Origin: a virus
IMG/VR virus record: IMGVR_UViG_3300029684_000017
Span: 1-41,905 of that record
Strand: one strand, 5' to 3'
DNA length: 41,905 nucleotides
A model generated the notes under the pieces. It was given only the letters and a program-made list of their open reading frames with translations. It did not search any database and had not been told where the DNA came from. Every line of letters begins with the position of its first letter. Within the stretch, counting starts at the first letter, position 1. The translations under genes and the position numbers were made by a program. This document shows positions 7,975 to 41,905 of this stretch, piece by piece.

Positions 7975-8080
7975 TACCTTTGCGGTGTAGTTCAATTCCA
8001 CAATGCAAATATAGATTAAAAATCTAATACACCACACAAAAATAGATCTAAAATATAATAATAAATATTTATGCAATTTG
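7975..8080 (+). promoter_or_regulatory. Second promoter (-7 box TACCTTTG) with the same downstream operator-like box
   Basis: tacctttg at 7975-7982. cacaatgcaaatat at 7999-8012, a 14/14 match to 6578-6591. atgcaatttg at 8071-8080. Confidence 0.55.
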
Positions 8081-8114
8081 CGAAAATTATAAAACACCTA
8101 ACATTCAGCGCATT

Positions 8115-8528
8115 ATGAGCACAATCGTAGAGCGCATAAATATCTATGCAAAACACAAGAAAACAACCAAAGCAGCTATTGAGCGAGAATCAGGGTTGCC
8201 GAATGGAACATTTAAGCCCACTACCCAATCGCTACGCATAGACGCCCAATCTAAAATAGCAAAATCATTTCCCGATTTAAATATCGGGTGGCTATTGACC
8301 GGCGAAGGATCAATGCTTAAAACTACCGACCAACCCGTCAGTCAAAGAGAAGAAGACGCAACACTTTCGGAAACTGACTTAAATAATTCAAACACTATGA
8401 AGAAGTATTTAGACCAAGTCCTTCGACAAAACGAGGAACTAATTCGGCAAAATGGGGTACTACTTGACCTATTCCGAGAAGAGAGGGCAAAAAACAAGGG
8501 CGAAGTCGCCCTAAAAAAAGAGGGCTAA
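8115..8528 (+). CDS. HTH transcriptional regulator with a C-terminal coiled coil (repressor-like, Bacteroidetes type)
   Basis: TTKAAIERESGLPNGTF ... NIGWLLTGEGSM signature. C-terminal helical region. Confidence 0.8.
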   Translation: MSTIVERINIYAKHKKTTKAAIERESGLPNGTFKPTTQSLRIDAQSKIAKSFPDLNIGWLLTGEGSMLKTTDQPVSQREEDATLSETDLNNSNTMKKYLDQVLRQNEELIRQNGVLLDLFREERAKNKGEVALKKEG

Positions 8529-8672
8529 GTGTATTCTAATTAGACTAATGCCTACCGGAGGAGAGCCGGAACCGTATGCCAAAGCACACACATAATAGCA
8601 CTAAAAATAAAATCATGCCCTTCTCCGAATACTCGGAGAGGGGTAAATTGTATAATAATAAAATGAACGTGT

Positions 8673-9035
8673 ATGGAACTTATTGCTACTTTATTGTTGA
8701 TTGTTTTCGGTATTTTACAAATCATTCTCTTCTTTAAGTTGTGGGGAATGACAAATGATGTTGCCCAGATTAAAGAATATATCGCACGCATGGATAAACG
8801 CGTCAGTAATAAATTAAAATCGGGAAAGGCACAAGGCGAACAAAAAGACGCTTCCATGCCCGATTGGGTAATCGGAAGTCGCGTAGTTCGCATAGCAACA
8901 GAAGAGCAGATGAAAATAATCAGCCTTAATTCCAATGGGTCCTTTGTATGTACAAAAGACGGAATAGTCGCCGGTTCATACCGTCGTGATGAACTTATGA
9001 CATGGACTGAATGGCTTGAACATCTCAAAAAATAA
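8673..9035 (+). CDS. Membrane-anchored small protein (120 aa)
   Basis: N-terminal TM helix LIATLLLIVFGILQIILFFKLWG. AT-rich accessory region. Confidence 0.65.
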   Translation: MELIATLLLIVFGILQIILFFKLWGMTNDVAQIKEYIARMDKRVSNKLKSGKAQGEQKDASMPDWVIGSRVVRIATEEQMKIISLNSNGSFVCTKDGIVAGSYRRDELMTWTEWLEHLKK

Positions 9036-9066
9036 TATATTGAAAAATCAAATAAAATAGGTTAAC

Positions 9067-9516
9067 ATGAAGAAACTTTTACTATTTTCCGTATGTATGG
9101 CTATTTTATGTTCATGTAACTCCAATCAGAAGAAAGCCGAACGATTGGTAAAACAATACATGAAAGAAAATCTCGACGACTATAAAAGTTACGAGCCTAT
9201 TAAATTTTCAGAACTTGAACCGATCCTGATAAAAGAACAAGCGGAAAAAGTTCTTAAAGTAGCAATAGATCATAAAAAAAGCCGCGAAGATTATATATAT
9301 TACTTGGATTCAACCCAATTAAAGGAACAGTTAGCATACATCGCTTCAATAGATACTGATATAGATTCGTTAAAAAGGGTTTGCGATTCAGCATCCGTTA
9401 ATGACATTCACGGTTGGTGCTTTGAGCATTCATACCGTTCTGCCAATAAAATAGGAGCAATGGAGAAAAAAACAGAAATATTTTATTTCAATAGAGATAT
9501 TACCGAGATTCAATAA
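9067..9516 (+). CDS. Lipoprotein (149 aa)
   Basis: Signal peptide MKKLLLFSVCMAILCSC with a lipobox Cys followed by NSNQKK. Confidence 0.8.
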   Translation: MKKLLLFSVCMAILCSCNSNQKKAERLVKQYMKENLDDYKSYEPIKFSELEPILIKEQAEKVLKVAIDHKKSREDYIYYLDSTQLKEQLAYIASIDTDIDSLKRVCDSASVNDIHGWCFEHSYRSANKIGAMEKKTEIFYFNRDITEIQ

Positions 9517-9534
9517 CCCCACCCTCCCCACTCC

Positions 9535-9561
9535 CGCCCCGACTTCTGCCGGGGCGTTTTT
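9535..9561 (+). terminator. Rho-independent terminator
   Basis: Stem cgccccg / cggggcg, 8-nt loop, ttttt. Confidence 0.75.
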
Positions 9562-9584
9562 ACCCAAAGTGTAGAATAATTCAC

Positions 9585-9604
9585 TACCTTTGCGCGTTAT
9601 TTGC
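9585..9604 (+). promoter_or_regulatory. Third TACCTTTG -7 box with a downstream inverted GCAAAT core
   Basis: tacctttg at 9585-9592; atttgc at 9599-9604. Confidence 0.5.
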
Positions 9605-9641
9605 TCGGAAAATGTTATATTTGTAACAAAGAACCACTACT

Positions 9642-10280
9642 ATGCTTGAAACTATTTGGAGCTGGATCATGGAAAACTACCCCGGCATATTCGCAATGCT
9701 GGTGGTTGCATATGCTGTATGGCATATAAGAGGATGGTATTCCAAATTCGACGCAAGGGTGAAAGCATGTGAAGCCCACGAACCAGCCATTGAGGAGATA
9801 AAAAACGACGTGAAAACCCTACAAAAGGATATTGACAGCGTTAAAATGGATGTGAAGAGTATCAAAGATTATTTGGTAACAAAAGATCAAAAAGCAATAA
9901 ACGTTTTAGCGATGAAAAATAGCCCGATGGTTCTCAATGAGAACGGAAAGCAGATATATGAAATTATAGTAGGTGATAAATTCCTCGCTGATAATAAGAC
10001 GCTTTTATTCGAGCGTATCGATAGTAAAAAACCTCGCACTCCGCTGGATGTAGAGATTGCAGCCAAAGAGGTGCTTATTGACCTCTTGAGTAGCCCCATA
10101 TTTGATGGAATTAAAAACATAGTATACAATTATCCATCGATTCAAATTAAACAAGAGGGCAAAGACATCGATTATGCTATTTCCATATCAGATGTATGCT
10201 TCGTGTTAAGTATTCCTTTGCGCGATATGTATCTGGAAGCGCACCCGGAAATAAACACGAAGGATAACGATAACAAATAG
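9642..10280 (+). CDS. Membrane-anchored coiled-coil protein with an uncharacterised C-terminal domain (212 aa)
   Basis: TM segment YPGIFAMLVVAYAVWHI, heptad-like IEEIKNDVKTLQKDIDSVKMDVKSIKDYL, and a globular C-terminal half. Confidence 0.7.
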   Translation: MLETIWSWIMENYPGIFAMLVVAYAVWHIRGWYSKFDARVKACEAHEPAIEEIKNDVKTLQKDIDSVKMDVKSIKDYLVTKDQKAINVLAMKNSPMVLNENGKQIYEIIVGDKFLADNKTLLFERIDSKKPRTPLDVEIAAKEVLIDLLSSPIFDGIKNIVYNYPSIQIKQEGKDIDYAISISDVCFVLSIPLRDMYLEAHPEINTKDNDNK

Positions 10281-32066: not shown

Positions 32067-33380
32067 TCACTCCAAAAGTTTGACCAGATCGACCTTCATA
32101 TCCTCATCGATGTCTCGATAGCGGGCGAATGCCTTGCTGCCTTCTTTATGACCCGACAATGCTCCGACAAGATTGGGGTCCTTGACTTGTTTGTATAGGT
32201 TGCCTACGAAAGTGCGTCGCGCCAAGTGGGACGATGCGACCTCCCAAATAGGTCGTTGCTCCGGATCTCGGGTAAGCTGATTCAGGATCGTTACTTTCCG
32301 TTTCAATCCAGCGGCAAGGAAAATCCGTTTAATCGCTTTGTTGTACTGCTGTTCTGCGATAAGTGGCAAAAGAGACGGACCCTCATAACGGGCATAACGG
32401 TCCAGTATTTCGCGAGCAATGGAATTGAGAGGAACCCTGACTGTTATAGGGCGCCCGTCCTTTGTTTTGCGAGGAATATATTCAATAGCTCCGCGAATTA
32501 GATTGTCTTTCGTCAATGCATATAAGTCACCAACCCGACACCCGATCAAGCATTGGAATACGAAGATGTCTCGTTGAATGGATAGCCGGGGATGTCGAGA
32601 AAGATTTGTGTGAAATATTCTATTCCGCTCGTCTATAGTAATATAGTAAGGGGTCCCATAAACGCAGTCTTCAATAGCATATTTCTTAAAAGGGTTGTTC
32701 GTTGTCTTATCATTATCTACCGCCCATATAAATATAGTCCTCAGCTTCTTCATCATGCCGCTGATCGTGTTCGATCCTCGCGGGCTCGGCTTACGGGATT
32801 CAGGAACCTGCTTGTATATTTGAGGATTGGCAGTAGCGATAACATGCTCGTTGCGCAGATAATTGTCGATAACATACAAGTCATCCAATGACAAAGTGTC
32901 AATATCCAAGATATATCCGGGTTCTTTGATCTGTCTCCACAGCTCAAACCTTTTCAATATTCGGAACAAAACCCTGAAATTGGCCTGGCGAACCTGCGAT
33001 AGCTTGCGTTTCTGAATAAATTCATCACAAATATCGAAGAACCCGGGTTTTAGCAAATGAAACTTTTCAGGGTGCAGACGCTTGTCCACTTCGATACGGA
33101 ATGTATCGGATAATACATTCTTTTTGTCGGGAAGCGAAGCATATACATCCAATAAAAGATTCTTCCATTTTGCAACATCGGCGTTGAACTCTCCCCTTGC
33201 GATAGTATCATAAATCACTTTCGATTTAATTTCTTGCCGCTTCGGGTCCCAATGTGCCGGATTTATTTCTAAATTTGACGTGTAAAAAAGTTGAACGTAC
33301 CTGCCGTCCCGAATTCGGAACCGAACTTTGCACTTGACGCCTTTTTTTGAGGTGCGAACGAAAGCAGAGATAGTAGCCAT
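32067..33380 (-). CDS. int: Tyrosine integrase (Bacteroidetes phage type with an N-terminal arm-binding domain)
   Basis: CLIGCRVGDL (Arg), HLARRTF (HxxR) and GHKEGSKAFARY (His...Tyr). Start taken at MATISAFVRTSKKG. Confidence 0.9.
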   Translation of the reverse strand: MATISAFVRTSKKGVKCKVRFRIRDGRYVQLFYTSNLEINPAHWDPKRQEIKSKVIYDTIARGEFNADVAKWKNLLLDVYASLPDKKNVLSDTFRIEVDKRLHPEKFHLLKPGFFDICDEFIQKRKLSQVRQANFRVLFRILKRFELWRQIKEPGYILDIDTLSLDDLYVIDNYLRNEHVIATANPQIYKQVPESRKPSPRGSNTISGMMKKLRTIFIWAVDNDKTTNNPFKKYAIEDCVYGTPYYITIDERNRIFHTNLSRHPRLSIQRDIFVFQCLIGCRVGDLYALTKDNLIRGAIEYIPRKTKDGRPITVRVPLNSIAREILDRYARYEGPSLLPLIAEQQYNKAIKRIFLAAGLKRKVTILNQLTRDPEQRPIWEVASSHLARRTFVGNLYKQVKDPNLVGALSGHKEGSKAFARYRDIDEDMKVDLVKLLE

Positions 33381-33575
33381 CGGGATAGTATTTAAGTGGT
33401 GGTGCAAGTTTAGCTTTTTTGCACCACACAACCAAATACAAATGTCCTTATTTGTCCGGAGTTGTCACAAATAAAACCACGTAAAACACGGAGGCTCAAA
33501 TATAAAAGCAAAATAGACAACAAGATACAAATGCGCCGACGGACAGCAATGTGGCCGCGGTGGGGCTACAATACG

Positions 33576-38438: not shown

Positions 38439-39317
38439 TTATTCGCATAGTCCGTAATAACTCATGCAACTCGTCGCCGTGTCGTCGTCGAACAAACTAC
38501 CTGTGGCATTCTGCCATTCGATATAGCGCACGACATCGTAAATGAATGCGTGCTTTTCGCTGCTGTTGATCGCACGCTGGGGAATCGTACCATCGACAAA
38601 GAAAGGTGATTGCAATTCTTTCTCTAAAACTGCGATTTGGTCGATTCGTTCGGGCGACTGCCGCGCAATGTTCAGTATGTCCCGATGCACACTCATTACG
38701 CACGGCCAGCACCCGACGCGCTTGTAGCCCATGCGGTAGAGGGGATTCGGCTCCAGCCCGGCAGCGAGGATATAATCGATGACCTGCTGCGCCGACCAGT
38801 CGAACACGGGGCGCAGCAAATCGTCGGCATACTTTTTCCGGAAAGTACAGACATCCTTTCCCCGGTAGGTGTGGTATTTCGGCTTTCCTGCTTTGTTGTA
38901 ACCATACGGCTCAAAGTAGTATTTGAAGTAGGTGCATTGCTTACTCATAGCCGCCCGTCGTGCAGATTCCGCAGCCCGGATGCCCTGAATCATCAACAAG
39001 TTGTCTTGCACCTCGTCCAGCACATAGTCAATCGTAGGCATGGTTTTTAATTCACCCGTGCATGAACGGAACCGCGGAGAGGGCCATTTCCCCTGCTTCT
39101 TTGCAAGAGCGACCATCCCGTCGTACTTCTTCGACTTCAATGTTACCAGGTCGAGGTGCAACTTGTCGGCTATCCGGTGGATGTACTCATACGTCAGCGG
39201 ATGTTCCCAGCCCGTATCGCAGAATACGGTCGTGAAATTCTTGGTGATATGCTCCCGGGTCCACAACAGCGCCGCAAGGCTGTCTTTTCCGCCCGAAAAG
39301 GTGACGATGACTTTCAT
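38439..39317 (-). CDS. PAPS-reductase-family PP-loop protein
   Basis: MKVIVTFSGGKDSLAAL (SGGKDS PP-loop) and C-terminal KRVGCWPC. Start at the internal ATG 39317, 10 nt below the upstream stop. Confidence 0.85.
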   Translation of the reverse strand: MKVIVTFSGGKDSLAALLWTREHITKNFTTVFCDTGWEHPLTYEYIHRIADKLHLDLVTLKSKKYDGMVALAKKQGKWPSPRFRSCTGELKTMPTIDYVLDEVQDNLLMIQGIRAAESARRAAMSKQCTYFKYYFEPYGYNKAGKPKYHTYRGKDVCTFRKKYADDLLRPVFDWSAQQVIDYILAAGLEPNPLYRMGYKRVGCWPCVMSVHRDILNIARQSPERIDQIAVLEKELQSPFFVDGTIPQRAINSSEKHAFIYDVVRYIEWQNATGSLFDDDTATSCMSYYGLCE

Positions 39318-39327
39318 AGCTTTCGTG

Positions 39328-40320
39328 TTAATACTCCACAGCCGCCCGGCGGTCGATGAAGAAGTGGATACCCGGAGCACACTCGTTCCAACGGTTATCG
39401 TCAAAATCGGAAACCTCGATGGTAGCGCCGACCGCATACACGAATTTTTCGTCATGATCCGAACAAACCGTCTCGATGTCGGCTTTGGTTCCATCGACAT
39501 TCTGAATCTCCGCCACATAGGCTTTGTCACAGCGACATTTTTCGCCTCCGGCAGAGCTGCGGCGGGCATCCTCCGGGATTTGCAACTTCACGACATATCC
39601 CGAAGCCTTTTTCCATCCGATAAAACTGCCGTCGGTAGGACAAGCCATATAGCTACCTCGGGCTCCGCGCAGGTCGGCTACGCGCAGGTCGGCTCCGCGC
39701 AGGTTGGCTCCGTACAGGTTGGCTTCGTACAGGTTGGCTCCGCGCAGGTCGGCTCCGCGCAGGTTGGCTCCGCGCAGGTTGGCTCCGTACAGGTTGGCTC
39801 CGTACAGGTCGGCTCCGCGCAGGTTGGCTCCGCGCAGGTTGGCTCCGTACAGGTTGGCTTCGTACAGGTTGGCTTCGTACAGGTTGGCTCCGCGCAGGTC
39901 GGCTCCGCGCAGGTTGGCTCCGTACAGGTTGGCTTCGTACAGGTTGGCTACGCGCAGGTCGGCTCCGCGCAGGTTGGCTCCGCGCAGGTTGGCTCCGTAC
40001 AGGTTGGCTCCGCGCAGGTCGGCTCCGCGCAGGTTGGCTCCGCGCAGGTTGGCTCCGTACAGGTTGGCTTCGTACAGGTTGGCTCCGCGCAGGTCGGCTA
40101 CGCGCAGGTCGGCTCCGCGCAGGTCGGCTCCGCGCAGGTTGGCTCCGCGCAGGTTGGCTCCGTACAGGTCGGCTTCGTACAGGTTGGCTCCGCGCAGGTC
40201 GGCGTCGCCTTTCAATGCCTCCGCTACCGTTTTGGCGAGCGTATTATCAACGCTCGAATACTCGAAAATGATAGAACCTGTCCAGCGGTTCTTAATCGAT
40301 ATTTTAATCTCTTTGCTCAT
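39328..40320 (-). CDS. Pentapeptide-repeat protein: 36 consecutive A(D/N)L(R/Y)(G/E/V) units plus a C-terminal globular domain ending CAPGIHFFIDRRAAVEY
   Basis: Direct reading of the 330-aa ORF. Confidence 0.9.
   Translation of the reverse strand: MSKEIKISIKNRWTGSIIFEYSSVDNTLAKTVAEALKGDADLRGANLYEADLYGANLRGANLRGADLRGADLRVADLRGANLYEANLYGANLRGANLRGADLRGANLYGANLRGANLRGADLRVANLYEANLYGANLRGADLRGANLYEANLYEANLYGANLRGANLRGADLYGANLYGANLRGANLRGADLRGANLYEANLYGANLRGADLRVADLRGARGSYMACPTDGSFIGWKKASGYVVKLQIPEDARRSSAGGEKCRCDKAYVAEIQNVDGTKADIETVCSDHDEKFVYAVGATIEVSDFDDNRWNECAPGIHFFIDRRAAVEY
39661..40200. repeat. Coding tandem array of 36 x 15 nt (GGCTNCGNNCAGGTY), with 11 of 15 positions invariant
   Basis: Counted directly. 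Only positions 5, 8-9 and 15 of the unit vary. Confidence 0.95.
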
Positions 40321-40341
40321 AGTTGTTGGTAGTTGTGATTG

Positions 40342-40755
40342 TTATCTTCCGAAAACGATACAGGCGGCATCCCTCGAGTGTTCTGAGGTCCTACCTTGCC
40401 ACTTTGTAAAGACCCTGAATTGCGCCGCCGATAGCTTCGTGCGGTTGTTCTTCGGGGGCACCATCCGATATTGCAGCCCCTGCTCCATACACCAGTCCTC
40501 CCAGATGCGGCTGTCGCGCTTCACGGAGCCCGCGCCCTGCAATTTCTCCCGCCCTGAGTGTCCGAACCACTTGCGCTGCCGGGCATCCTCGATGAACAAC
40601 CGGATGTTGTCTTTTCCGAGGATGTCCGCAAGCATCTTCACGCGCTCCATTGCCTGGGTGATGGTGTACGTGGAGACCTCGGCGAGATATTTAGAGTCTG
40701 AATGCCATACGGCGAAGCCTGTATGCACGCCCGTGTCAATGCCGATGTACGTCAT
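40342..40755 (-). CDS. RuvC-like Holliday-junction resolvase
   Basis: TYIGIDTGVHTGFAVW, LFIEDAR, GAGSVKRDSRIWE and SEHSRDAACIVFG motifs. Confidence 0.7.
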   Translation of the reverse strand: MTYIGIDTGVHTGFAVWHSDSKYLAEVSTYTITQAMERVKMLADILGKDNIRLFIEDARQRKWFGHSGREKLQGAGSVKRDSRIWEDWCMEQGLQYRMVPPKNNRTKLSAAQFRVFTKWQGRTSEHSRDAACIVFGR

Positions 40756-41249
40756 AGCTCGTCCGGGATATGATACCGTGCCTTGTCCACTTTGAGCACC
40801 CAGCTGGGTTTCTCGGCCCCATTGATGCGTATCGGAGCGTAATCGTCCGTGCTGCCGCCGTTCCGAGCTACTTCATTACACATCGCAGAATACGTCAGAA
40901 TCCGACATTTCACATCAATGCCCAGGATGTCGGCGATCGTCAGCCGTTTGTACGTAAACGTGTCCAGTACCCTGTTCAGGGCATATTCCAGCCGCTTCCC
41001 GCTCATCCCCGTCTTCCCGATACGCTCGGCAAGGATGGAGAAGAATTCGCTCGACATATCCGGGAAACATACGGACAGCTTATGCACCGCCGTGGCGATA
41101 TGTGCCGTCGATGCCGGAGGCCCGGCAAGTACGGATACCTCCTCACTCCCACTCTTGGCGAGTGTGAGCGCGAGAGATTCCTTCGGCGACAGCCCGAGCG
41201 AGTTCATCAGGGCTTGGGGGTTGATTCTTTGTACTTCGTCCATAGTCAT
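40752..41249 (-). CDS. Hypothetical replication-module protein (165 aa)
   Basis: ORF with ATGA overlap downstream. Its 5-prime end overlaps the replication gene by about 107 nt, so the start is uncertain. Confidence 0.55.
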   Translation of the reverse strand: MTMDEVQRINPQALMNSLGLSPKESLALTLAKSGSEEVSVLAGPPASTAHIATAVHKLSVCFPDMSSEFFSILAERIGKTGMSGKRLEYALNRVLDTFTYKRLTIADILGIDVKCRILTYSAMCNEVARNGGSTDDYAPIRINGAEKPSWVLKVDKARYHIPDEL

Positions 41250-41905
41250 TTGTCGTTTTCAGCGGGAATAACCCCGCCCAGTTATTTGCCATAGATTGTC
41301 GGATGATCTTACGGGCAATGTCCGGCTCCCCGTTTGAAAGTTCCCGCAATTTGGAATAACAAGCCTTTAATCCCTGCTGCCGATAGGTCTGTCCGCGCTC
41401 AGACTTGTAAGCAAGCCATTCCGCCATAACTGGCTGGAGCGAAGGTTCGACGAAGGATAAATCAGTCTCTTTTCTTTTGCCGCAACTTTTCTTTTTCTCT
41501 GGTCCGTTTTTTACGGATTCATCGTCAGAGTCCGGAGAGCCGATTTCCCCCTTAGGGGGATTATAGGGGGTACTACTATTCCTCTCCTTTTCCTCTCCTA
41601 TTATAGTCACTGATTGATCACTGATTGATCCATGATTGATCACTGATTGATCAGTGAATTTAGCTAAAATACTGTCTAATAGCTCCTTATTAATATTTAC
41701 ATCGTCCAAATTAGGTCGATTGATTATTTGGTGACGGGAGAAAGTAGGAAGATAGTAGAAACTCTCCGATTTGACGGAGAGAAGACTAATAAAACCGGTC
41801 TTCTCGAGCAGCCCTAACCACGCCTCCATCTGTTGAACCTGTATTCTGTCGTAAGGAAATATTTTTGATTTTAGCCAAACGGGATCGGCGATCACCACAC
41901 CTAAG
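41143..41905 (-). CDS. Replication initiator / replisome-organizer-like protein, C-terminal segment (N-terminus at 209-100 across the junction)
   Basis: See feature 1-209. Contains the internal iterons. Confidence 0.7.
   Translation of the reverse strand, partial: LGVVIADPVWLKSKIFPYDRIQVQQMEAWLGLLEKTGFISLLSVKSESFYYLPTFSRHQIINRPNLDDVNINKELLDSILAKFTDQSVINHGSISDQSVTIIGEEKERNSSTPYNPPKGEIGSPDSDDESVKNGPEKKKSCGKRKETDLSFVEPSLQPVMAEWLAYKSERGQTYRQQGLKACYSKLRELSNGEPDIARKIIRQSMANNWAGLFPLKTTNDYGRSTKNQPPSPDELARAVAEGISRAHTRQEWE
41608..41651. repeat. Four tandem 11-bp iterons (CACTGATTGAT; third copy CCATGATTGAT) inside the replication gene
   Basis: Read directly. Partial fifth copy 41652-41657. Degenerate gattgat at 41718-41724. 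AT-rich flank 41654-41745. Confidence 0.85.
41807..41905. repeat. Second copy of the 99-bp terminal direct repeat
   Basis: Identical to bases 1-99. Confidence 0.95.

Follow-up and report, generated by a model that had tools for sequence, protein, structure and literature searches.

A phage early gene combining a concertedly evolving pentapeptide-repeat array with a C-terminal DUF5758 domain

The locus analysed here raises the question of what is encoded by a phage gene built from 36 near-identical 15-nt units, and of what keeps these units alike. Pentapeptide-repeat proteins are very common and their function is understood for few of them, mainly topoisomerase protectors. Qnr and MfpA are pentapeptide-repeat DNA mimics that bind gyrase. 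An earlier note, made from the sequence alone, had proposed a DNA-mimic inhibitor for this gene as well, and had read the uniformity of the units as a sign of very recent amplification or ongoing concerted evolution. In the following, the window denotes the whole stretch of DNA analysed (41,905 nt; IMG/VR record IMGVR_UViG_3300029684_000017, positions 1 to 41,905).

The window contains the phage genes integrase, ERF, NinB, O-like initiator, terminase, portal, and capsid. Its last 99 nt (41807..41905, a direct repeat without strand assignment) are identical to its first 99 nt, meaning that the contig is circularly closed and was assembled at k=99, and two related assemblies (L081 and L105) read straight through the junction of the ends. 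The phage is complete, circular, temperate, siphovirus-like, and about 41.8 kb long, and it probably infects Parabacteroides or other Bacteroidales. The pentapeptide gene is an early-operon accessory gene on the minus strand (39328..40320; 330 aa plus stop, from the ORF list and translation). The neighbours named in the earlier note are borne out by profile matches, namely a RuvC-like Holliday junction resolvase upstream (40342..40755, minus strand; phrog_1770, E 1.2e-24) and a PAPS-reductase-family gene downstream (38439..39317, minus strand; PF01507, E 3.6e-28; phrog_424, E 2e-53), whose start lies 10 nt past the stop codon of the pentapeptide gene. By tblastn, the resolvase was found near three of the 42 related loci that match any neighbour query (L006, L013, L081), and the PAPS-reductase-family neighbour is found at only part of the related loci. 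Because only some relatives have these neighbours the link to both is incidental, and a functional coupling to either was rejected. A 5.9-kb stretch surrounding the gene, compared by megablast with the GenBank phages, returned one small match covering 2% of the query, and a cultured close relative does not seem to exist among the GenBank phages searched. A scan of GTDB found the gene in MAGs only (Muribaculaceae, Dysgonomonadaceae, and a 'Clostridia' bin), with no isolate or long-read genome to fix the copy numbers.

The encoded protein consists of three parts. The N-terminal cap (aa 1-39, MSKEIKISIKNRWTGSIIFEYSSVDNTLAKTVAEALKGD; 40204..40320, minus strand) is predicted to adopt a beta-beta-alpha arrangement, with strands at residues 6-10 and 17-22 and a helix at 28-37 in the AF2 model, and this cap type (IxIKNRxTG...) is found again in other phage pentapeptide proteins. 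It is followed by the array (aa 40-219; 39664..40203, minus strand), for which tandem repeat finding (TRF) and unit parsing gave 36 uninterrupted in-frame units of 15 nt, and by a C-terminal domain of 111 aa (aa 220-330; 39331..39663, minus strand) that belongs to the Pfam family DUF5758. The profile search suggested in the earlier note placed both families above their gathering thresholds. Pentapeptide PF00805 (E 1.6e-92 for the whole protein) scores 302.8 bits (cutoff 20.2) in seven stretches, and DUF5758 PF19062 (E 1.6e-33) scores 115.2 bits (cutoff 26.9) over nearly its full model (aa 225-327, 39340-39648, minus strand; model positions 3-105 of 105), so that the protein is a member of both. 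The proposed order of a short N-terminal domain, repeats, and a C-terminal domain was thus right, but the last of these measures 111 and not about 115 aa, and the protein does not end with CAPGIHFF because IDRRAAVEY comes after it. An exact look-up of the 330-aa protein in the protein collection returned no identical entry.

The array itself is as uniform as had been described. ORF translation and TRF (period 15, 36.2 copies, secondary period 75 nt) agree on 36 uninterrupted pentapeptides of the form A(D/N)L(R/Y)(G/E/V), and the alignment of the units confirms that 11 of 15 nucleotide positions are invariant and that variation is limited to four nucleotides: nt 4 (A/G), nt 10 and 11 (always changing together, as CG or TA), and nt 14 (G/A/T). 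These combine to six unit types, ANLRG (a, 12 copies), ADLRG (b, 7), ANLYE (c, 6), ANLYG (d, 6), ADLRV (e, 3), and ADLYG (f, 2), in the order bcfaabebcdaabdaaecdabccdaafdaabcdaeb. All variants are nonsynonymous, and not a single synonymous variant is present in the 36 units. A pattern of two units occurs 35 times in the window, always within the array (0.01 expected). The codons of the array have genome frequencies of 0.23-0.45, as opposed to complete uniformity inside the array. Codon usage is not the cause of this uniformity because the codons concerned make up only 23-38% genome-wide (GCC 38% of Ala, CTG 23% of Leu, CGC 25% of Arg, GGA 27% of Gly). Slippage driven by hairpins was rejected, as the array DNA does not fold better than shuffled sequence (z -0.6 and +0.3).

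In pentapeptide units, positions 2, 4, and 5 point outward and positions 1 and 3 inward (PMC10886550). The full-length AF2 model (mean pLDDT 80.8) has a continuous solenoid at aa 41-221 with one beta bridge per five residues and a pLDDT of 78-92 in most blocks. Foldseek matched this model to the solved pentapeptide structures HetL, Np275/276, Beta1, Qnr, and MfpA, and the matches cover the solenoid only. The array is therefore predicted to form an idealised, loop-free, right-handed, four-sided (quadrilateral) beta-helix of about nine coils, in agreement with the nine turns estimated from the sequence. A coil-register periodicity (lag 4) of the surface residues is absent from the arrays examined.

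Related arrays reveal how the uniformity arose. The comparison set comprises 38 arrays with 750 units, which are not phylogenetically independent, and heterozygosity in this set is 0.48 at nt 4, 0.45 at nt 10, 0.30 at nt 11, and 0.35 at nt 14 versus 0.008-0.07 at the five third-codon positions. The variation lies at the three outward-facing residues, which are D/N, R/Y/C, and G/E/V. Of the 744 Ala codons 727 are GCC, and of the 749 Leu codons 735 are CTG. The flanks differ at 5-31% of their synonymous codons, yet the array codons are unchanged. Most arrays have A as third base of the fifth codon, but this base is C in L007, L010, and L046 and T in L021, L034, and L043, while the other four synonymous positions are alike in all lineages, so that the between-lineage signal comes from one position. 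Twenty-five pairs of loci have identical coding DNA for the N- and C-terminal parts; in 20 of these pairs the arrays genuinely differ, both containing private 31-mers, three pairs are compatible with assembly collapse, and two are identical. Array length is indeed variable among relatives, as the comparison of repeat numbers demonstrates, and ranges from 5 to 45 units without a modulo 4 preference, although all related arrays are short-read assemblies whose individual copy numbers may be collapsed. In addition, swaps between R and Y require two linked nucleotide changes, which points to templated replacement of units.

Synonymous uniformity, lineage-specific states, and a variable number and order of units between identical flanks are the hallmarks of concerted evolution, and all three are present. 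The array represents a coding minisatellite whose concerted evolution is long-standing and continues. Thus, homogenisation at the DNA level, as originally proposed, stands, but the amplification was not very recent because the codon backbone is kept while the flanks differ at that many synonymous codons, and a single recent amplification is contradicted by a fifth-codon third base that is fixed differently between lineages. Misaligned recombination or slippage, along with conversion between 15-nt units and blocks of several units, leads to the gain, loss, and replacement of units. This turnover outpaces point substitution in the flanks by far and removes synonymous differences inside each array. 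The pattern suggests that selection fixes the inward-facing Ala and Leu, and that it may also maintain the mixture of residues at the three outward positions. The GCC-RAC-CTG backbone common to distant lineages could partly result from the exchange of arrays or from a constraint at the DNA level.

Because the fold search with the full-length model returned the solenoid only, the C-terminal domain was predicted again alone (AF2: pLDDT 89.9, pTM 0.84). The model of its 111 residues is beta-rich with just a six-residue terminal helix. A fold search with this model found no match in the PDB and matches with TMq 0.7-0.83 in BFVD, the sequence search against the PDB gave nothing even at E=10, and neither PADLOC nor NCBIfam contains a matching family. 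A catalytic family was thus detectable neither by sequence (PDB) nor by fold search. Invariant residues among the close relatives are C8, P9, K18, K19, K42, C43, R44, C45, D88-W92, E94, C95, G98, H100, F101, and F102 (domain numbering). DUF5758 matches 3,746 clusters (50% identity). Nearly all of the best 150 representatives have the domain at or near the C-terminus, and 136 of the 150 contain pentapeptide repeats as well. Proteins of giant viruses and phages join the DUF5758 fold to RING, HEAT, MORN, and pentapeptide repeats. Other phage pentapeptide proteins have a similar cap and a homogeneous array but different unannotated C-terminal heads, to which Pfam scans assigned no family. Human-gut Bacteroidales phages and cluster E mycobacteriophages frequently have DUF5758. 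A literature search on DUF5758 returned no paper mentioning this family, and literature searches on pentapeptide repeats in connection with phages, anti-defence, DNA mimicry, tandem repeats, or Bacteroides did not yield anything on it either; of relevance was only a remark on the phages L and ST64T, which are discussed below. DUF5758 is an uncharacterised, large phage and prophage family.

Taken together, we regard as the best explanation, and as rather probable, that this is a three-module gene in which a concertedly evolving array encodes a solenoid scaffold presenting DUF5758. The solenoid might serve as a length-tolerant and quickly re-surfaced binding or spacer scaffold, and might display the conserved head, DUF5758, to a partner from host or phage in early infection. 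A role in host takeover or counter-defence would, tentatively, fit better than that of a DNA mimic with the fixed geometry of Qnr and MfpA. If the array were indeed a re-surfaced binding scaffold, it would constitute a new route to diversification in the arms race between phages and hosts and a natural template for designed solenoid binders. Hypervariability is not required for the function of the family, however, because three mycobacteriophage homologues have degenerate repeats of fixed length (281 aa).

Such homologues also count in favour of a rival reading, in which the array would be a neutral, unstable spacer, that is, a slippage-prone linker whose length and surface are irrelevant while DUF5758 alone matters. 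The copy number is not constrained, as every modulo 4 residue is represented between 5 and 45 units, and the higher-order repeat period differs between arrays, being 5, 6, or 7 units. However, a homogenisation that removes nearly all synonymous variation should also clear neutral amino-acid variants. Instead, D and N are near 50:50 in all 38 arrays (heterozygosity 0.32-0.64), and the R/Y/C and G/E polymorphisms persist across lineages. In addition, purifying selection is obvious at the inward Ala and Leu, and His, which mutation can reach from CGC as easily as Cys, is present in four of the 750 units compared to 123 units with Cys. We therefore consider the neutral spacer rather unlikely. Were it true, it would warn annotators that short-read copy numbers of such genes are unreliable, and even then 'pentapeptide repeat' should not be equated with 'Qnr-like'.

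The scaffold presenting DUF5758 can also be taken further. It is conceivable, but we think unlikely, that temperate phages use such genes as recombination-driven 'cassette' binders, in which the outward residues and the length of a rigid solenoid are continuously reshuffled out of few unit types and the heads, DUF5758 being one of several, are interchangeable, allowing rapid re-targeting of a host defence or takeover factor. This would be a counterpart of diversity-generating retroelements (DGRs), or of assembly in the style of variable lymphocyte receptors, that does not need a reverse transcriptase, and re-targeting could happen within very few generations.

A further rival reading is that the array is a product of the assembler, which might have generated a long array or a wrong order of units from an array that is in truth short or different. 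The earlier caution about assembly was justified: among the IMG/VR contigs, 11 of 80 loci terminate inside the array, the L105 record from another ENA assembly has a 100-N gap in its array, and L081 has 15.4 kb of flanks identical to the window but only 17 units and is apparently collapsed. Among the best 120 of 760 homologues, lengths are 106-195 aa, corresponding to about nine or fewer units in those carrying the N-terminal cap. Mixed populations could furthermore yield chimeric assembly paths. On the other side, the longest exact repeat inside the window array is 74 nt and no 77-mer occurs twice, so that the closure at k=99 leaves a unique path. Up to k=51, the L081 array has no k-mer that is missing from the window array and is a sub-path of it, whereas the window array contains 10 15-mers and 87 31-mers that are missing from L081 and must derive from reads. 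Therefore, L081 and not the window is the candidate for collapse, and we withdrew L081 as a proof of fast contraction (17 versus 36 units). Independently, L105, another assembly of the same phage, matches the window over 5.7 kb of flanks with 0 mismatches and has at least 32 units around its gap, with the same first 10 units and a 22-unit tail; its array is three unit-level changes away from that of the window. A protein fragment without flanking DNA (P0159) has an identical C-terminal domain and keeps the last 19 units, the last 94 array residues being alike except for one Y/R change. Collapse only shortens arrays, and 36 units are therefore, if anything, a lower bound. The array was not invented by assembly, and an artefact in its length or order is quite improbable.

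It is harder still to uphold the proposal that the solenoid, as a mimic of B-DNA, binds host gyrase, topoisomerase IV, or a defence that targets DNA, in the way of Qnr, MfpA, and AlbG. The fold is common to QnrB1, AlbG, MfpA, and EfsQnr (Foldseek E 1e-9 to 1e-7), nine coils are of comparable length, the position among the early genes fits a host-takeover factor, and some related arrays are acidic (e.g. L026, net -14). However, the protein stays far below the NCBIfam cutoffs for Qnr (NF033086; 71.6 bits, cutoff 240), for QnrA, B, C, D, E, S, and VC (50-76 bits, cutoffs 425-500), and for MfpA (NF000349; 105.5 bits, cutoff 360), and belongs to none of these families. The window array is basic, with 22 Arg against 18 Asp plus Glu (net +4, pI 9.4) and Arg at outward positions in 22 of the 36 units, and charge counts of the relatives run from -14 to +5 without consistent acidity. 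A copy number of 5 to 45 without modulo 4 preference is ill-suited to a mimic of fixed DNA geometry, and the loops of the Qnr type are absent. The Qnr/MfpA class is described with a C-terminal dimerising helix (PMC10886550), and in its place the window protein has the 111-aa beta-rich DUF5758. The inference of a DNA mimic or gyrase inhibitor is thus not supported; judged by every sequence criterion tested, the solenoid does not appear to be a DNA mimic, and we consider this function very improbable. A match to the Alr5209 equivalog family (NCBIfam NF052603) was not taken as membership, since its 205.5 bits (cutoff 125) are summed over four stretches of generic repeats, the best of which covers model positions 16-94 of 113. 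Finally, DGR variable regions are common in gut phages and superficially resemble an array whose variation is limited to the few nucleotide positions specifying surface residues, but templated mutagenesis by a DGR or another system can practically be dismissed, because no ORF among those scanned (not every small ORF) matches a reverse transcriptase, the window outside the array lacks any further copy of the unit to serve as template repeat, the variable sites are A/G, C/T, G/A, and G/A/T and not adenines alone, and R and Y replace each other by two linked bases at a time, turning one existing unit type into another.

A scaffold presenting DUF5758 can be compared with several known systems. The nearest are DUF5758 relatives, namely gp59 of Mycobacterium phage 244, a Kostyavirus 'pentapeptide repeat protein', and an Alistipes communis 'DUF5758 domain-containing protein', which have the order of cap, pentapeptide solenoid, and C-terminal DUF5758 in common with the window protein and are likewise early-operon genes of temperate phages. 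The C-terminal domain of the window protein shares 48% identity with the mycobacteriophage proteins and 79-80% with those of Alistipes. An early position is also seen in the mycobacteriophages of cluster E, which have the homologue as third gene next to the immunity repressor. The mycobacteriophage homologues differ in having degenerate repeats and 281 aa in all three phages examined, whereas the window array is homogeneous at the DNA level and variable in length, and they lack C8 and C45, two of the four Cys conserved in the window group. The instability of the array is paralleled in the Salmonella P22-like phages L and ST64T, whose genomes are more than 99.9% identical and differ at only two places, one of them a 15-bp in-frame indel of one repeat in the early-left-operon gene orf232 (bioRxiv 10.1101/2020.10.05.325894). 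Like the window gene, orf232 is a phage early gene with pentapeptide repeats that change by unit steps, in this case seen in cultured phages. However, the change comprises one unit only, neither surface-restricted variation nor a DUF5758 head has been reported, and the likeness lies in the instability.

With respect to design, the type III effectors SopA and NleL, the latter among the Foldseek matches to the window model, also combine a pentapeptide-like beta-helix as presumed target-binding part with a conserved C-terminal head, but this head is a HECT ligase unrelated to DUF5758, and the analogy extends to the design only. QnrB1, MfpA, AlbG, EfsQnr, and McbG have a right-handed quadrilateral beta-helix of comparable length (Foldseek probability 1.0). 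In contrast to them, the window protein falls below every family cutoff, has no loops, no acidic DNA-like surface, and no C-terminal helix, and possesses an extra 111-aa domain and an unconserved length. The designed solenoid 'Beta1' (PDB 4yc5, 4ycq, 4yfo) is 44-52% identical over about 180-210 columns and, like the window array, loop-free and close to the consensus A(D/N)LXX, but it is synthetic and of fixed length whereas the window array has its own N-terminal cap and DUF5758 and varies naturally. Compared to classical contingency loci, the in-frame unit steps of the window array keep the reading frame and do not cause on/off frameshifting, and compared to DGRs, with neither a reverse transcriptase among the scanned ORFs nor a template repeat in the window, its diversity arises as a few types of unit are reshuffled. 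With these coding minisatellites and contingency loci and with DGR variable regions it nevertheless has in common a quick and local diversification of the surface on a rigid scaffold.

The pentapeptide gene (39328-40320, minus strand) encodes 330 amino acids, of which residues 40-219 are 36 pentapeptides without interruption. These belong to only six types at both the DNA and the protein level, namely ANLRG (12 units), ADLRG (7), ANLYE (6), ANLYG (6), ADLRV (3), and ADLYG (2). Of the 15 nucleotides per unit 11 do not vary. Variation is limited to nt 4 (A/G), nt 10 and 11 (always either CG or TA), and nt 14 (G, A, or T), and all variants are nonsynonymous. Translation of the ORF, parsing of the units, and TRF (period 15, 36.2 copies, and a higher-order period of 75 nt) all agree with the array as first described in the earlier note. 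A two-unit pattern matches the window 35 times (0.01 expected), each time within the array. The uniformity is not caused by codon bias because the other genes of the phage use mixed codons (GCC for 38% of Ala, CTG for 23% of Leu, AAC for 45% of Asn, CGC for 25% of Arg, and GGA for 27% of Gly), as do the flanking domains of the gene itself. On the plus strand, two long ORFs (39040-40332 and 39704-40795) span the array as stop-free read-throughs, without domain support.

The warning that such an array is an assembly hazard was justified: 11 of 80 IMG/VR contigs end within the array. The first and last 99 nt of the window are identical (1-99 and 41807-41905), an exact direct terminal repeat such as a de Bruijn assembler leaves when it closes a contig at k=99. 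The genome in the window is circularly closed, measures about 41.8 kb, and was probably assembled with this k-mer size. The longest exact repeat inside the array is 74 nt and no 77-mer recurs, so that at k=99 the array is a single unambiguous path. Three other records of the gene were found. In ERZ28659671 scaffold_780 (L105, sample SAMEA3449246) the flanks of 2,395 and 3,336 nt have zero mismatches to the window, and the array consists of the same first 10 units, a 100-N scaffold gap, and a 22-unit tail, thus of at least 32 full units. The tail differs by three unit-level changes (ADLRV to ADLRG, one ANLYE absent, ADLYG to ADLRG). The UniRef entry P0159 ("uncultured Parabacteroides sp.") is a fragment cut by a contig end, which matches the last 94 array residues of the window except for one Y/R difference. 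ERZ27256451 k119_95914 (L081, MEGAHIT k119) has 15.4 kb of flanks 100% identical to the window, yet only 17 units. All its k-mers up to k=51 are present in the window array, while 10 15-mers and 87 31-mers of the latter are absent from it. Therefore, collapse could turn the window array into the 17-unit array but not vice versa, and the latter looks collapsed. L081 and L105, two public assemblies of the window phage, differ from the window in this array alone. The long array is real, and 36 units is a credible copy number, although formally a lower bound. As the apparent collapse and the N gap illustrate, copy numbers of this gene family are unreliable in short-read assemblies, from which all related arrays derive. 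In the relative L057 (IMGVR_UViG_3300035652_000027) the longest ORF runs through the array in a different frame (RSRPARSRPV...) and the parsed C-terminal part has 138 residues, which suggests a frameshift or assembly error within or after the array.

Among the relatives sharing the cap and the DUF5758 domain we surveyed 38 distinct arrays with 750 units. Mean within-array heterozygosity is 0.476, 0.451, 0.296, and 0.348 at nt 4, 10, 11, and 14, respectively, and 0.038, 0.028, 0.015, 0.008, and 0.070 at the third codon positions (nt 3, 6, 9, 12, and 15). Of 744 Ala codons 727 are GCC, and of 749 Leu codons 735 are CTG. Most arrays have A as the third base of the fifth codon; L007, L010, and L046 have C, and L021, L034, and L043 have T. 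Uniformity within and difference between lineages is the classical mark of concerted evolution, which the earlier note had already suspected at the DNA level. The "very recent amplification" proposed along with it is not borne out, however. Of the synonymous-capable codons in the flanking N- and C-domains of these genes, 5-31% differ from the window, so that the homogeneous arrays belong to an old, diverged gene family. The arrays are kept homogeneous by continuing turnover and not by one recent burst.

This turnover is fast, judging from 25 locus pairs whose N- plus C-coding DNA (453 nt) is 100% identical. Private 31-mers are present in both arrays of 20 pairs, whose differences therefore cannot have been produced by collapse; three pairs are compatible with collapse and two have identical arrays. 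Several of the 20 pairs are also identical over 1 kb on each side. Single-unit R/Y differences (the window and P0159; L015 and L016/L017) require two linked base changes (CGC to TAC), for which the best explanation is that a unit of one existing type took the place of another. Higher-order periods are 5 units in the window, 7 in L004, and 6 in L008 and L020. Neither a lag-4 signal in the arrays nor unusual folding of the array DNA was found. A cultured-phage precedent for turnover by pentapeptide units is provided by phages L and ST64T, which are >99.9% identical with only two differing sites, one being a 15-bp deletion that removes a single pentapeptide repeat from orf232, a gene of the early left operon (bioRxiv 10.1101/2020.10.05.325894).

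In the pentapeptide fold, unit residues 1 and 3 point inward and residues 2, 4, and 5 outward (PMC10886550), and the variation is confined to the outward positions. D and N are near 50:50 in each surveyed array, and all lineages retain variation among R/Y/C and among G/E/D/V. Homogenisation that erases synonymous variation should also erase neutral amino-acid variants. His and Cys are mutationally equally near to CGC, but His is found in 4 and Cys in 123 of the 750 units. From this pattern, seen in arrays that are not independent samples, we infer that the core is under purifying selection and that a mixed surface is selected for. Cys replaces Tyr/Arg at the outward i+1 position in L022, L023, L026, L029, and L046; in L026 as many as 14 cysteines are on the surface of a single solenoid, which is unusual for a cytoplasmic protein.

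Pfam assigns Pentapeptide (302.8 bits) and DUF5758 (115.2 bits, residues 225-327). In the full-length AF2 model (mean pLDDT 80.8) a beta-beta-alpha cap (E6-10, E17-22, H28-37) is followed by a continuous solenoid (residues 41-221) of about nine coils with one bridge per five residues and by a beta-rich C-domain. The whole model matches the solved pentapeptide proteins HetL, Np275/276, QnrB1, AlbG, and MfpA, and the designed "Beta1" consensus solenoids at 44-52% identity. The C-domain is modelled confidently alone (pLDDT 89.9, pTM 0.84) but has no match in the PDB by fold (best E 1.8, TM <=0.26) or by sequence. In the BFVD 37 viral models match (E < 1e-3, TMq about 0.7-0.83 in most); they belong to phages and mimivirus-like giant viruses, whose proteins join the domain to RING, HEAT, MORN, or pentapeptide repeats. 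Residues conserved in close relatives include, in C-domain numbering, C8, K18, K19, K42-C43-R44-C45, D88-W92, and E94-C95-x2-G-x-H100-F-F. A phmmer search with this domain against 1.84 billion representatives retrieved 3,746 clusters, 2,129 of them at E <= 1e-10. In nearly all of the best 150 representatives the domain is at or near the C-terminus; 136 of these 150 also contain pentapeptide repeats, and a few LRR/DUF285 repeats.

The window phage is temperate and siphovirus-like, with terminase, portal, major capsid, and tail proteins on the plus strand and an integrase at 32067-33431. Given the circular closure, the minus-strand early arm runs across the window ends, from ERF/NinB (211-2096) into the O-like replication initiator gene (41143-41898), followed by the RuvC-like resolvase, the pentapeptide gene, and PAPS reductase. 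Resolvase and PAPS reductase indeed flank the gene, as noted earlier, but do not support the functional reading attached to them: among the 42 related loci matching any neighbour query, the resolvase was detected in three and PAPS reductase in roughly two-fifths, and such patchy neighbours are uninformative on function. In related IMG/VR loci the pentapeptide gene stays downstream of the replication module (repO-orf165-...). All hints at the host point to Bacteroidales: Parabacteroides (P0159), Alistipes communis (P0149, P0195), one Muribaculaceae MAG, and one Dysgonomonadaceae MAG. The initiator gene contains an 11-nt tandem repeat, TCACTGATTGA (41607-41657, 4.6 copies, TRF score 81), resembling iterons or an origin inside the initiator gene like that of lambda O. 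Just upstream of terminase, 8001-10000 has a GC content of 0.377 compared to 0.45-0.55 elsewhere and may represent newly acquired DNA or a regulatory/cos region.

Arrays on the GCC-RAC-CTG backbone are present in at least 120 IMG/VR contigs according to a DNA pattern search. DUF5758 terminates 47 of the 119 examined; the rest carry other, unannotated heads, often preceded by an IxIKNRFTG-type cap as in the DUF5758 versions. These other-head phage contigs with DNA-homogeneous arrays come from several environments (L087 and L106-L224, e.g. L107, L108, L125, L139, L156, L169, L172, L199). Their heads match no Pfam family, and several have the motif "...(I/V)K.GC...W" in common.

The earlier proposal that the solenoid is a DNA mimic has little probability left. 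The protein scores far below the cutoff of the Qnr and MfpA models, its array is basic (net +4, pI 9.4; -14 to +5 in relatives), copy numbers lie between 5 and 45 and are spread about evenly over all residues modulo 4, Qnr-type loops are absent, and the DUF5758 domain stands where the dimerisation helix would be. Instead, the evidence favours a modular design of cap, solenoid scaffold, and C-terminal head. With this design, and with a place in the early operon of two phage groups that are unrelated, our preferred reading is that the solenoid could serve as a binding or spacer scaffold that tolerates changes in length and is rapidly re-surfaced. Early in infection it would present the conserved head to a partner from the host or the phage, for takeover or counter-defence. 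We regard this functional step as a tentative suggestion, while the structural and evolutionary description of the gene is likely to hold.

The cap-pentapeptide-DUF5758 architecture is already catalogued in Pfam, and the protein is a member of a known, uncharacterised family. In the searched literature we found no description of a hypervariable, concertedly evolving array with surface-only variation, nor of the recurrence of such arrays with interchangeable heads in many phages. The same order of domains is found in 152 records of Mycobacterium phages (Kostyavirus, cluster E; phage 244 gp59). In the three examined, phages 244, Phaux, and Goku (L102-L104), the gene is the third of the early operon, beside and divergent from the immunity repressor. 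Unlike in the window array, their repeats are degenerate and the length is fixed at 281 residues; their C-domains lack C8 and C45 but have kept C43, C95, and H100. The cluster E gene is a genetically tractable homologue.
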